From Chrysomallon squamiferum (Eukaryota > Animalia > Mollusca), in contig CM022672.1 in assembly GCA_012295275.1 (NCBI GenBank), positions 620,001 through 684,000 on the forward strand: a DNA stretch of 64,000 bases. The letters are read 5' to 3'. A program made the position numbers and the translations under genes. How positions within the stretch are numbered: the first letter of the stretch is position 1; each line of letters begins with the position of its first letter. A model generated the notes under the pieces. The model saw only the letters and a program-made list of their open reading frames with translations, searched no databases and was not told where the DNA came from. Shown here one piece after another: positions 34,288 to 57,086 of the stretch.

Positions 34288-34576
34288 TTATATATGTAAA
34301 TGTCTCTCTAAAGAACTTACTTGCTTGCTGTAGAGGAGACCAGACAGAGATCTGTAGTGTGTTTTGATGTGTTTGTTTAACACGTCTTTCCTACAGAACA
34401 TCTTGGCACACACAGGACAGGAATGACACAACATCTTCTCGTGGACACTTCTCTCGTGTCGCACAAGATGATGTCGCGACGAGAACTGCTTCTTACACAC
34501 ACTGCACTCGTGATGATGATAATGATGATGACGACTTCGTAAATGAGTGAGGTCATGTGACTTGATCACGAGCAAT
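34288..34576 (-). CDS. Alternative terminal exon ZF-A: two C2H2 zinc fingers
   Basis: Acceptor cttcatttcAG|A TTG (AG 34578-34577, phase 2). CSVCKKQFSSRHHLVRHERSVH ... CPVCAKMFCRKDVLNKHIKTH. His-rich run before finger 1. Own stop codon. Confidence 0.85.
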
Positions 34577-34959
34577 CTGAAATGAAGTAGGCATGTCACT
34601 GCTGTGTACAGTTGATATGAGATCAAGTCAGAGATGAGTTTAAGATAAATGTCATTATTACGTATCTCTTTACAAACACAATATTTTTTATATTTGTATA
34701 TAATTTTAATAATCATATATCATGTACATTGAATTAATATAATTATATAATGTTTGAAAGTGAATGTATATGAGCACTGTAATACATAGCTAGGTCAGTT
34801 ATTAAAAAAACAAAAGACAGCCTTTCTGTGATAATACATTAATGAAGCCATGAAACAGATTGTAAATTCTTCCAACATCATCTCATAAAATATCAGTTAC
34901 AGTCAAATCAGCTTGGAAACATTTATTTTAACTCACTTTCTTTGATTGATTGAGTTGAG

Positions 34960-35172
34960 CAAGAGCAAGAACAAGAGAGCAAGAGCAAGAACAAGGGGAG
35001 AGGAGAGGGAGAGGGAGAGGGAGAGGGAGGGAGAGAGGAGAGAGAGGGAGAGAGAGAGAGAGAGAGAGAGAGAGAGAGAGAGAGAGAGAGAGAGAGAGAG
35101 AGAGAGAGAGAGAGAGAGAGAGAGAGAGAGAGAGAGAGAGAGAGAGAGAGAGAGAGAGAGAGAGAGAGAGAG
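34960..35172. repeat. Purine tract ending in long (AG)n microsatellite
   Basis: Visible run. Confidence 0.95.
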
Positions 35173-35549
35173 AAAGTTGTATCCAGTACTGACAGATAAA
35201 GGTGTTTGAAAAAAGAAGTAAAATACTGCTGTTGTTGACAAGATACTTACACTCACAAACTTTTCTTCTCACTTCGTTTTCCATCAACAAGTTCATCATG
35301 GCTATTAGTTTGTTTTTTCACTTTTGTTTTCAAATAAAAATGTATTTGTATTATTGCTTTCTTTCTTTGTTGTAGCTGATTTTCTTTTTTATTGTTATTT
35401 TTTAAATTTTTTTTTTTTTTTTTATTTGTATGTGCCAACACATTTAAATGTTAAACTGGAGATTAAAGAAAACAAATGTTAAAGAAATGCAAAAAAATTA
35501 CATTTCCATGTTTATTAGTATGTTTTTATTTATGTTTTTGTTTCAATTT

Positions 35550-36150
35550 TATTATTATTATTATTATTATTAGTAATAGTAATAGTAGTAGTAGTAGTAG
35601 TGGTGGTAGCTGTAGTAAAAGTACTACTAGTAGAGTTATGTAGCAGAAATGGTAATAACAACAGTAGTGGTAATTAGTAGAAGCAATAATCGAAGTAACA
35701 GGAATATTAGTAGCAGTAGCAGCATTAGTATTTGTAACAGTAGTAGTAATAATAATAACAATAGCAATACTATTAGTATTTGTATTAGTAGTAGTAGTAA
35801 CAATAACAATAGCAGTACCATTAGTATTTGTATTAGTAGTAGTAATAACAATAGTAGTATCATTAGTATTTGTAATAGAAGTAGTAATAATAACAATAGT
35901 AGTATCATTAGTATTTGTAATAGTAGTAGTAATAATAACAATAGTAGTATCATTAGTATTTGTAATAGTAGTAGTAATAATAACAATAATAGTATCATTA
36001 GTATTTGTAATAGAAGTGTTTGTAACAGTAGTAGTAGTAATAATAACAACCGTTAGTGTTTGTAACAGTAGTACTATTAGTATTTGTAATAATAGTAGTA
36101 GTAATACTAACAATATCAGTAGTATTAGTATTAGTAGTAGCAGCAAAAGT
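35550..36150. repeat. Low-complexity (AGT/AAT)-based compound repeat with ~42-45-bp higher-order unit
   Basis: agtagtatcattagtatttgtaatagtagtagtaataataacaat recurs several times. Confidence 0.85.
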
Positions 36151-53529: not shown

Positions 53530-53731
53530 CTAAAATAGTTTAGAGTGACGTACAAGAGAGTCTCTTCGTGTGAAAACTTGGTCACAGAGAGGGCATGAAA
53601 AGGACACTGATCGAGAATGAACAGTGTCATGATGTCGTTTTAAGTCATGTGGAAATGCAAACACTTTGTTACACTTAGCACACAGGTGGCGCTGTCTGAC
53701 AACACTTCCTGATTTTGTCTTCATGCCTGGG
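53530..53731 (-). CDS. Alternative terminal exon ZF-I: one complete and one truncated C2H2 finger
   Basis: Acceptor tttgtttctattgcAG|C CCA GGC ATG (AG 53733-53732, phase 2). CAKCNKVFAFPHDLKRHHDTVH...CPLCDQVFTRRDSLVRHSKLF* lacks the last Zn ligand. Confidence 0.78.
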
Positions 53732-55948
53732 CTGCAATAGAAACAAAGTTGGATGTCAAAGACTCATGAGTTGTGTCCCCTAACTCAGGTGTTAAACTTT
53801 AACCACAATCAACTATCTACTTTTGTAATGTAAAACACTGCTGTTTTTGTGTGAAATTATAAAACTCACACATAATCAAGTCTATGTGTTTATAGTTTAC
53901 TATACTTTTAAACAGTATAAAAATAAGATGCAGATTAGAAGGGTTATCACTGTTGAAAGTCAAATCAAATAAATTAATTATGATGTTGGTACAAGTACAC
54001 CTCTGATTCAGTAATCCTTTGCTGTAGTCTCTGCTAATTATCAGTTTTTTCCCACATCAGGATAATTCAGCTATACACCTTTAAACAAATAAATATGTAT
54101 CTCCCATATCTTTAAAGAACCATACACTGCTATGAACTTAAATTAAATACTTAAATAAAACATATCAGTATAAATGGTTCTAGATTATAAGTACTTGTTG
54201 CATTAAAAAAATAATAATAAATAAATTAAAAAAAGAAAATTAAATTTAAAAAATTTTAAAAATCAGATAATGATTTTAAAACAATATTAAATGAAAATTA
54301 AGAGATATAATATGGAGGTCCAGATCATCAATGTCATGAAAATATCCTACATTTCAAGTTCTAGTTAGTAGTTGCATAAAAAAAATAATAAAATTAAAAT
54401 AAAATCAGATGATTTTAAAACAATAGCAAATCTATATTAAGTGATATATTTTGAGGTTCCAGATCATCAATGTCTGGAAAATTGATCATGTATAGTAAAA
54501 TCAATAAATTAATTAAATACACTTTTATAATTTAATGTACAAACTTCAAAATGCTGCTTATTCTACAGTTTAAATACCAGTATTTCTTGAAATCCTGCAG
54601 TGTTTTAAAACAACAACTTTTAGTGTAAAGTCCTTAAATAATTTTCAATTCAAAATAAAAAAAACTGTAAAGAATTAATAACAGAATATGTAAATTTTTA
54701 AATTTAATTCAAAACCAATACTGCAGACTAGGTAAATGTAGTCAGGTAACATTTTGCTACCTAACAATCTGAAGTCACGACATTCAAAGCATACTTTTTA
54801 GACCAGACTATGTATTTAAGGAAATGATGGTGATCTCCATTAACATACACACACATGCATACATGCACACATGCACACACACCTGTTTTTACAAAAATTA
54901 AGAGCGATATATTAAATTACATGCAAGAGATAAGAACAATATTTTCAGTAAACATTTATTGCACATTATGACACTTTATTAAAACAGAAAAATAAAATTA
55001 TTTGTTTTTGTAATGTGAACGTATTTTTATGCTGATGATTATTAAGTGTCAAGTACTTTATAAAGAACAAGAGATAAAAGCCACTAGAGCAGTTCTTTGT
55101 GAGTTCGTGTCTCAAGGACAGCAGAGATTATCTTAATTGTCACATAACACAGGTTGGAATATAAACCACTGGGAACACAATGGAGAACTGATCCTGCAAT
55201 CCTAGATAACACTTGACAATATCCTACAACTGATACAAACACTCGTAGGTTTATCTGATATCTGTGGACAAACAGAAATCTCTAAAATAATAACTAACAC
55301 AAATATTTTCTTTTGCATGGATAATGAGTGAACAAAAAACAGACTATTAATCATTAACAAGCAAAAACAAACAAAATAATAAACAGGATGAAGTTTAGAC
55401 AGATATTCTGTTTATTATAAAAAAAACAAAACAAAAAAAACCCTATCAAACATATGAACACACTAACAAAGGAATGTGTAAGTAAATGTTCCTCTGTAGT
55501 AACTAACAACAATGTTTATAAGACATGAGGAATAAATGTAACCCAGTCTGAAATCACAAACTGTTTTATATCTGCTCTGTGTGTTTGATTTGGTTTTCAA
55601 AATGTACATCTTTCTTCACAAGCTTTAATCTGTGACTTCTGTCAGTGTTTTGTAACAAATCATCAGATATCTGAATTAACTTGTCTTCATCACTGTCACT
55701 GGCATCACTTGTTTTTTTCTTCTGTGCTGTAATACAACTTTCTGACACACACAACTAAACACTTTGTACATATTTGAAATAAAGCTCTTCCTACAGCTGC
55801 CATTGTTCTTCATGCAAATATAAATAAAAGACTTCTTAATAATAAATGCTACAGATATGACTCAAACACTTGGATTCTGTTGTTTTACCTAAATAAATGA
55901 AACACTTGTAAATGTTTTACATATACAAATGAAACCCTTTGCTGATGT

Positions 55949-56189
55949 TCACAGGTATAAATGAAACACTTGTGGATGGTGTTGTTTGATGTGAAGGTTG
56001 AGGTTAGAATTGCGGCTGAACTGTTTTCCACACACTGCACATTCACACTTGCTCTGGGCATGGACAGTACGCCTGTGTCTGGTCAGAGCAGAACGAAATG
56101 TGAAAGTTTTTGTACATTCACCACATTTGTACCTTGATCCACCAATGTACCTCTCTGACGAGACATTCAAGTTTGAACTTTGAGCCACT
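55949..56189 (-). CDS. Alternative terminal exon ZF-J: two C2H2 zinc fingers
   Basis: Acceptor tgcttccctttcAG|A GTG (AG 56191-56190, phase 2). CGECTKTFTFRSALTRHRRTVH...CAVCGKQFSRNSNLNLHIKQH. Confidence 0.87.
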
Positions 56190-56722
56190 CTGAAAGGGAA
56201 GCAGACAAAAACTGTGTAAGCCTTCGCAGTTGAAGCACATAACTGTTGACATCTGCAACTCAAACATTACAATCTCACTATTCTCAGCAATACTAGATAC
56301 TCAAGAAGTCCATACAGTTTTTTCTAAACTTGTCTTCTTGTCTTCTTTGTTTGACCTACAACTGCAGTTCTAAATATGACACACACATACTGTTACAACA
56401 CTAACCACAATTGTAAAAGAAACTAATGCCCTTCTAGCAGTATTCAAAAATGTCAAATACACCATTTTCAATAAATGAAAAATAAAATTGTTTCAGAACT
56501 GAAATCAAGAAATCCCATTAAATGATCCCTGAACACAGTAACAAACTGTTCTATTAATACATCGATTTATATCACTTTTTTAACGAGGCAAATCACTGAA
56601 ACTGGTCACATTCTGACCTTGGTCTAGTGACTGGTCACTAGTCTTATTATTTTTAATCATCTTTTTCAAGTCCTTCAGGTTGATCAGATTGATATTGATC
56701 TCCTGAACATCTGCACACCATC

Positions 56723-57086
56723 TTATTTTTCATCATGTTTTTTAACAGGTAAGTCATCAAGGACAGTCAGATGAGGATGTTCTGCTGTGTCTAGCTGTGG
56801 ACTGCTTTCACTAAACTGGTCAGACATGTGAAATGACGAGTGACCTGCTGATTTCAGGTGTGAGTTGAGATGTTGAGCGAGAACATCCTTCCTGTTGTAG
56901 TTCTTGCCACAGAGAGGACATGTGTGACGCAGAAGACGTTGGTGCACACTCTGCTGATGTCGTACTAGAGTCCAGTTATATGTGAACTTTTTGTTGCAAG
57001 TTTCACAAATGTGATCTTTCTTAGATTTTATGGAAAATCGAAAGTCTCCTGTCATATCAATATTTGCATCAGCTTTTGAGGTCATT
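56723..57086 (-). CDS. Alternative terminal exon ZF-K: two C2H2 zinc fingers plus C-terminal tail
   Basis: Acceptor tttgttttgttttcAG|A ATG (AG 57088-57087, phase 2). CETCNKKFTYNWTLVRHQQSVH...CPLCGKNYNRKDVLAQHLNSH. Confidence 0.87.

Follow-up and report, generated by a model that had tools for sequence, protein, structure and literature searches.

The genes broad, fruitless and tramtrack have two to four alternative two-finger ends which are chosen in cis. Larger numbers are outlined for two other fly genes: lola, a Tramtrack-group BTB gene of Drosophila, has 20 isoforms, of which 17 differ in their C2H2 ends, and mod(mdg4) has at least 30, mostly with FLYWCH ends; both use trans-splicing (PMC11426971; PMC6237743). 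According to PMC11426971, extensive arrays of exchangeable DNA-binding ends characterize the Tramtrack-group BTB genes of arthropods, and BTB domains of the TTK type were found in neither Annelida nor Mollusca. PMC3228551 defines a class of alternative 3'-terminal exons that have multiple poly(A) sites. Here we describe an array of 12 two-finger C2H2 exons and one decayed copy on the minus strand of a 64-kb stretch of DNA (the window). In the literature searched, i.e. titles and the beginnings of abstracts, we found no description of a non-arthropod array of this design; supplements may list non-insect loci. The features are as follows.

63919..63971, minus strand: last shared (constant) exon with phase-2 donor 63919; 5' edge at the putative acceptor 63971
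61798..61806, minus strand: candidate in-frame microexon of 9 nt, located within the first intron (1.8% of 500 Markov samples, post hoc)
56723..57086, minus strand: variable last exon 1, two C2H2 fingers, 120 aa (Pfam; orthologue P0271, 59% identity)
55949..56189, minus strand: variable last exon 2, 79 aa (acceptor, Pfam, fingers)
53530..53731, minus strand: variable last exon 3, 66 aa; finger 2 without last His
51532..51763, minus strand: variable last exon 4, 76 aa (acceptor, Pfam, fingers)
49547..49784, minus strand: variable last exon 5, 78 aa; finger 2 atypical (C-x1-C, ending H-x5-C)
48484..48715, minus strand: variable last exon 6, 76 aa; finger-1 half almost the same as in exon 7
45902..46139, minus strand: variable last exon 7, 78 aa (RNA splice from donor 63919)
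44665..44869, minus strand: variable last exon 8, 67 aa (acceptor, fingers; RNA contig coverage)
41702..41930, minus strand: variable last exon 9, 75 aa (acceptor, Pfam, fingers)
39712..39949, minus strand: variable last exon 10, 78 aa; 39716 may be an in-frame phase-2 donor
38692..38856, minus strand: decayed copy (profile scan and sequence reading)
34288..34576, minus strand: variable last exon 11, 95 aa; phase-0 donor of high score at 34321
30830..31100, minus strand: variable last exon 12, 89 aa, two intact fingers (acceptor, Pfam, fingers)
31500..64000, no strand: continuous CpG-depleted block (CpG o/e bins)

The exons are built alike. After a pyrimidine-rich CAG acceptor in phase 2 come a C-x2-C-x12-H-x4-H finger, one more finger and the exon's own stop. 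Phase and stop were found in 12/12 exons, and the Pfam domain zf-C2H2 was above cut-off in each of them. All 13 copies are oriented identically; the top profile score on the plus strand was 3.5 bits. The first-pass annotation had listed 11 exons and one decayed copy. Its 11 exon starts were all correct, each at such an acceptor on the minus strand, and the decayed copy was located at 38856-38692, but the twelfth intact exon, 31100-30830, which falls beyond the annotated range, had been missed. The description of one finger pair and one stop per exon stood in general, with the second fingers of 53731 and 49784 as exceptions. In the decayed copy the acceptor is out of phase with the finger frame, the first Cys is gone, finger 1 is short by two residues, and a stop precedes the His residues of finger 2. 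A Met ahead of finger 1 is missing in 8/12 exons, bearing out what had been said of several, and is present in four. The array does not fit a Krueppel-type poly-zinc-finger gene: TGEKP linkers were found in 0/12 exons, fingers occur in pairs only, and a stop follows each pair. A 63-bp tandem repeat begins at the stop of exon 3, and in exon 12 the end of finger 2 is expanded into a 50-bp minisatellite (29903-30947). Rfam and tRNA searches gave 0 matches each. A GPCR gene neighbours the array; an Atlas search for it gave only generic clusters and was uninformative on the host, and exact searches with five proteins of the window gave 0 matches.

The N-terminal part had been reported as not visible. 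This is correct for the head domain, which would lie beyond 64000, yet the last shared exon is inside the window, ending at 63919. It is present there as a single copy, has an acceptor score of 12 and no in-frame Met. In RNA run X3 a contig fuses its final 30 nt to exon 7 at 46139, skipping six finger exons and 17.8 kb. The contig had 0 mismatches over 88 nt, a stretch in which the paralogue 48715 differs at four positions. The donor is in phase 2, as are 12/12 acceptors, and joining it to any of them yields a sense codon. Of the proposed scheme, one upstream donor with alternative ends, a single-copy, phase-matched donor and one RNA junction were thus found, and the remaining isoforms are extrapolated. 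The RNA data cover 2/12 acceptors (46139 and 44869) in three runs, with the junction in one of the three; the earlier figure of 'at least 11 isoforms' is inferred, with one junction shown. Exon 8 (44869) was covered by contigs in 3/3 RNA runs, with no junction among the 14 loose ends listed of 16. The distinct finger-2 half of exon 6 (48715) is a loose end in runs X2 and X3. Contigs of X1 and X2 also cross acceptors unspliced, representing pre-mRNA or DNA. Loose ends at 46153 and 46037 were rejected as splices; they map to the paralogue 48715 and also occur in the DNA-like run X5.

Because RNA joins the shared exon to exon 7, the gene likely makes a set of regulators which read different DNA sites. 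We consider it probable that this is one gene whose shared exon is spliced directly to exon 7, and likely to each of the other exons, giving up to twelve transcription-factor isoforms that share their front part and differ in the DNA-binding end. The front part would be coding and supply the start codon, and a single long pre-mRNA would span the array. The exons are likely alternative last exons, and the choice among them is likely made in cis: cleavage and polyadenylation after a proximal exon would compete with splicing to an acceptor farther along the transcript. The base composition fits a single transcription unit. CpG o/e was 0.11-0.33 in 16/16 bins of 2 kb covering 32 to 64 kb and 0.57-1.39 in the 16/16 bins to their left; exon 31100, just beyond the edge of the depleted block, has a CpG o/e of 1.41. 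The unbroken depletion over 31.5-64 kb may be the trace of past gene-body methylation across a single transcription unit. The pattern matches molluscs, also some arthropods.

In 12/12 exons the top-scoring acceptor within 120 nt ahead of the first Cys was the phase-2 one, with a background of about 0.2 acceptors of comparable score per 120 nt in any phase; the score was devised after the sites had been seen, and the 12 cases are not independent because the exons are paralogues. A branch-point motif was present at 8/13 acceptors, and no shared upstream module was found at them. AATAAA after the stops was about as frequent as expected from composition and absent after 57086 and 39949, so the poly(A) sites are putative. 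A search for Dscam-like docking elements that pair in the RNA gave only simple repeats and the paralogy of the exons. The same isoform set could be made by trans-splicing, i.e. from internal promoters with the donor supplied by another RNA molecule. The fly genes lola and mod(mdg4) are the precedent (PMC6237743; PMC11426971), and as outlined in PMC6237743 both trans-splice, so cis choice is not the precedent. Passing six good acceptors over 17.8 kb would be easier in trans, and the contig junction is silent on cis versus trans; the 30 nt of donor sequence that it contains hold no variant. Yet 13/13 copies share one strand, and the first intron has no near-perfect U1-type decoy site. CpG-rich interruptions are absent between 31.5 and 64 kb, which rules out CpG-rich promoters only. 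The first-pass annotation had seen no repeated promoter or N-terminal exon between the copies, and we likewise found no repeated first exon, promoter-like module or other non-simple repeated module in the array. Overall, we regard trans-splicing as unlikely.

Another alternative is that some last exons double as internal exons and generate four-finger chains. In exon 10 (39949) a phase-2 donor lies in frame at the stop codon (39716); its score is 0.59, compared with 0.96 for the true donor. Exon 11 (34576) has a phase-0 donor after finger 2 at 34321 with a score of 4.94, which could be joined to the phase-0 AG at 31096 in exon 12. The earlier statement that the stops prevent chaining is therefore not strict. 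Against chaining, in 5/12 exons no donor past finger 2 scored above the floor, the donors of the remaining exons are mostly in phase 1, and the junction seen is direct. Chaining appears improbable; chained isoforms would be compatible with the one-gene explanation as an addition to it.

The median pairwise identity of the exons is 41%. pN was below pS for 66/66 exon pairs. In other individuals four exon SNPs were found, two of them non-synonymous, a number too small to test. In the tree neighbours cluster (49784/48715/46139/44869 and 41930/39949). The array may have grown by tandem exon duplication, with neighbouring exons swapping finger halves and copies being lost by decay. In the orthologue P0271, from a 368-kb contig of another genome, exon 1 and the residues read across its acceptor are kept, and the Met that follows this acceptor in the present locus is absent. 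A search for related loci gave two distant hits at 36-38% identity. That the copies are a tandem row of independent small genes or relics, with only 46139 belonging to the upstream gene, is very improbable: four exons do carry a Met, one copy is decayed, one is truncated and RNA was examined at two acceptors, but eight exons lack the Met, as does exon 1 of P0271, all 12 share one phase with no repeated first exon, selection is seen in all pairs, and the junction leaps six exons, each of which would on this view be a gene inside an intron.

In the helix of finger 1, positions -1, 2 and 3 are variable and the Arg at position 6 is invariant; in finger 2 an R-x-D is retained in 10/12 exons. It is therefore predicted that one part of the DNA site is common to the isoforms and the rest differs. 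Homologue searches yielded no head or upstream sequence. Profile searches were dominated by poly-finger proteins (among the best 120 of 297 and the best 150 of 242,340 matches); on rescoring, the best single pair reached at most 55 bits versus 63-83 bits for the array's own exons. The exact donor-exon pattern had 0 matches in metagenome contigs, and residues 1-42 of exon 1, sought in longer proteins, were found in 0 of 1 candidate, which is weak evidence. An Atlas search with exon 7 gave generic C2H2 clusters. The Tramtrack structure 2drp ranked 54 of 55 for exon 7 and was absent among 41 matches for exon 8 and from the best 60 of 259 for the profile, in a ranking that favours multi-finger chains. 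A special likeness of the finger pair to Tramtrack, as opposed to other C2H2 proteins, was not found. The locus works like lola but is not assignable to the BTB/lola genes because neither head domain nor host phylum was found.

If the host is not an arthropod, a TTK-type BTB should be absent and the design arose on another scaffold; with an arthropod host and a BTB head the find would be ordinary. Tentatively, and with chances a little short of even, we suggest that a non-arthropod (mollusc or annelid) independently evolved a lola-sized array of 12 exons with a non-Tramtrack head and cis choice, in one methylated unit whose neighbouring exons exchange finger halves for new DNA specificities. 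In such animals, gene counts would understate transcription-factor diversity because annotation would record a single gene or a series of fragments. The locus is compact, and its one donor, 12 acceptors and natural polymorphism make cis versus trans and the choice of distal last exons directly testable.

As in lola, common 5' exons probably lead to one of many C2H2 3' exons, with an array size of 12 versus 20. Unlike lola, which has internal promoters and trans-splicing, this array shows no sign of either in strand, CpG content or repeated modules; its fingers have no special likeness to Tramtrack, and the head is not seen in the window. With mod(mdg4) it shares a last common donor and, probably, a choice among many alternative 3' exons; it differs in using C2H2 pairs instead of FLYWCH and in lying on one strand, whereas the fly exons are sometimes on opposite strands. 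Compared with the alternative 3'-terminal exon class, the terminal exons are likewise homologous, in the same phase and apparently mutually exclusive, but they are paralogous DNA-binding modules and number twelve rather than two. Broad, fruitless and tramtrack share with this locus the two-finger last exons, the non-TGEKP linkers and the likely cis choice; the present array is three to six times larger than theirs.

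A six-frame motif scan of the window revealed a C2H2 finger pair in 12 minus-strand frames and, by inspection, no comparable pair outside them. These variable last exons are numbered 1-12, from acceptor 57086 to acceptor 31100. The pair profile yielded 63-83 bits for all 12 exons in the window scan, 21 bits for a thirteenth, decayed copy and at most 12 bits for pieces of a minisatellite; the best plus-strand value was 3.5 bits. Every exon (12/12) exceeded the Pfam zf-C2H2 cut-off. The 11 exon starts of the first-pass annotation each turned out to be a pyrimidine-rich CAG acceptor in phase 2, and its decayed copy was also located. 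A twelfth, intact exon (acceptor 31100) lies beyond the range annotated then. The top acceptor within 120 nt upstream of the first Cys was in phase 2 in 12 of 12 exons; the score was ad hoc, sites of comparable score have a frequency of about 0.2 per 120 nt, whatever the phase, and the cases are not independent because the exons are paralogues. The finger-exon array is real.

Features in and around the array
About 63971-63919, minus strand: shared exon, ending two bases into a codon, then a GT donor
61798-61806, minus strand: candidate 9-nt in-frame microexon; strong acceptor, donor 9-mer identical to that of the shared exon
38856, minus strand: decayed copy; acceptor phase does not match the finger frame, first Cys lost, premature stop before the last His residues
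32953-33058: hairpin in the last intron; 51-nt arms, 80% complementary, 4-nt loop
29903-30947: 50-bp minisatellite, about 21 copies; the unit is the coding end of exon 12 finger 2
7261-11486 (minus) and 1843-2645 (plus): a facing pair of paralogous GPCR genes, rhodopsin family

Phase-2 splicing to the acceptor of the decayed copy would open a finger-less minus-strand frame of at least 70 codons from 38856 onward, possibly a candidate dominant-negative-like isoform. The hairpin is perhaps a small transposon relic.

The shared-exon donor at 63919 gave a sense codon at the junction with any of the 12 acceptors. The window holds no second copy of this exon. It has no in-frame Met, which would place the start codon beyond 64000. 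Part of the array was present in five runs from two studies. Contigs were compared over 2.45 kb of the array, in which 2 of the 12 acceptors lie, using three RNA runs (X1, X2, X3) and X5, a run of unrecorded kind which looks like DNA in its even depth (about 50 across all 30 bins). A 118-nt contig of X3 matched 46052-46139 without mismatch, and its remaining 30 letters were the 3'-terminal 30 nt of the 63919 exon. The paralogue at 48715 differs from the exon part at 4 of 88 nt; thus the assignment to 46139 is specific. This junction leaps 17.8 kb and six finger exons and leaves out the candidate microexon (1.8% in 500 Markov samples); no such end was among the loose ends listed for X5 (14 of 16). 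The contig begins exactly 30 letters ahead of the junction. With assembly words of 31 letters this would mark a fork at the donor, the other branch of which may be another exon or merely unspliced intron. Exon 44869 was covered in 3 of 3 RNA runs, in X3 at 44500-44862 with a depth of 15.7 and nothing in the intron just upstream; no junction at 44869 was seen among the loose ends listed. Contigs running unspliced across acceptors in X1 and X2 are pre-mRNA or DNA in origin. Of the proposed joining of one common donor to each acceptor, one instance (46139, X3) was thus observed at the two acceptors covered.

The finger exons are very unlikely to be separate genes. As previously claimed for several exons, Met is missing between acceptor and finger 1 (8 of 12). 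Self-comparison showed nothing beyond the paralogy of the exons and repeats of simple or local tandem type, in agreement with the claim that no promoter or N-terminal exon is repeated. pN was below pS in 66 of 66 exon pairs (medians 0.42 vs 0.81, synonymous sites being mostly saturated), not the dN/dS near 1 which the annotation had set against its proposal. A single relative, protein P0271 on a 368-kb contig, was found among 6 matches of 466 candidates, with 59% identity to exon 1 over 133 residues. In P0271 the intron-derived residues that are read through the acceptor are retained and the Met that comes after the acceptor in exon 1 of the window is absent, as would be expected of an orthologous spliced exon.

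CpG o/e was 0.11-0.33 in 16/16 two-kb bins between 32 and 64 kb, whereas all 16 bins to the left gave 0.57-1.39, with a step at about 31.5 kb; exon 12 lies just beyond the depleted block. Of the 33 one-kb bins from 31 kb on, 26 had an AT skew with T favoured on the minus strand, compared with 13 of 31 to the left. According to two sources, past gene-body methylation leaves CpG depletion (PMC11706791), and oyster methylation is mosaic, over gene bodies with promoters spared (PMC4378273). The sequence pattern fits a single long transcription unit that contains no CpG-rich internal promoter; CpG-poor ones would be compatible with it as well. This gene-wide CpG pattern and general impression make a non-arthropod host rather probable. 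The region of the GPCR pair was not depleted (0.85-1.05). The two genes are 57% identical over 233 aa, and an intron near TM3 sits at the same position in both; 10974-11486 is an additional exon of the minus-strand gene. Their TM3 motif is reminiscent of that of ecdysis-triggering-hormone/ghrelin-type receptors.

The last exon would be selected in cis, splicing versus polyadenylation, a mechanism which we favour as rather probable. Poly(A) signals in the array were near chance. Trans-splicing, in which variable exons from internal promoters are joined to the shared donor, appears unlikely. It has a precedent in flies: PMC6237743 gives 20 variants for lola and at least 31 for mod(mdg4), whose 3' exons come from separate promoters and at times lie on opposite strands. 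Here, however, every copy is on one strand. Stops were said to prevent chaining of the exons. Each exon has its own stop, yet two exons have minus-strand donors after finger 2 (39716, 34321). These could link pairs into four-finger isoforms.

The finger pairs share a median pairwise identity of 41%. In finger 1, all 12 exons have Arg at helix position 6 and variation at -1, 2 and 3; in finger 2, 10/12 combine Arg at -1 with Asp at 2. The usual C2H2 recognition model relates helix positions to the DNA site. From these residues, the isoforms would have part of the site in common and differ in the rest. Neighbouring exons cluster in a tree of the array. Between exons 6 and 7, the finger-1 half shows differences at 4 of 88 nt and the finger-2 half at 29 of 99 (Fisher P = 5e-6, breakpoint picked after inspection). 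Such uneven divergence points to conversion or a partial duplication involving one finger. In exon 3, a minisatellite adjoins finger 2, from which the last His is missing.

No head domain of the gene was found in the window or by homologue searches, and the finger pair has no special likeness to Tramtrack. TTK-type BTB, the Tramtrack-group head domain of fly genes such as lola, is described as not found in Annelida or Mollusca in PMC11426971, and Mod(mdg4) as found only in arthropods in PMC4208683. Among the profile matches was a Patella vulgata protein, P0092, which carries BTB and PHD domains next to some ten C2H2 fingers and shows no sign of kinship to the locus. Homologous terminal exons have been defined as a class (PMC3228551). 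A non-arthropod array of this kind was not found in the papers searched, most subscription papers lying outside the search. The array works like lola, with one upstream donor and probably swappable C2H2 ends. In contrast to lola and mod(mdg4), where 3' exons are at times on opposite strands, all copies are co-stranded. The locus is likely a new form of the known swappable-end design.
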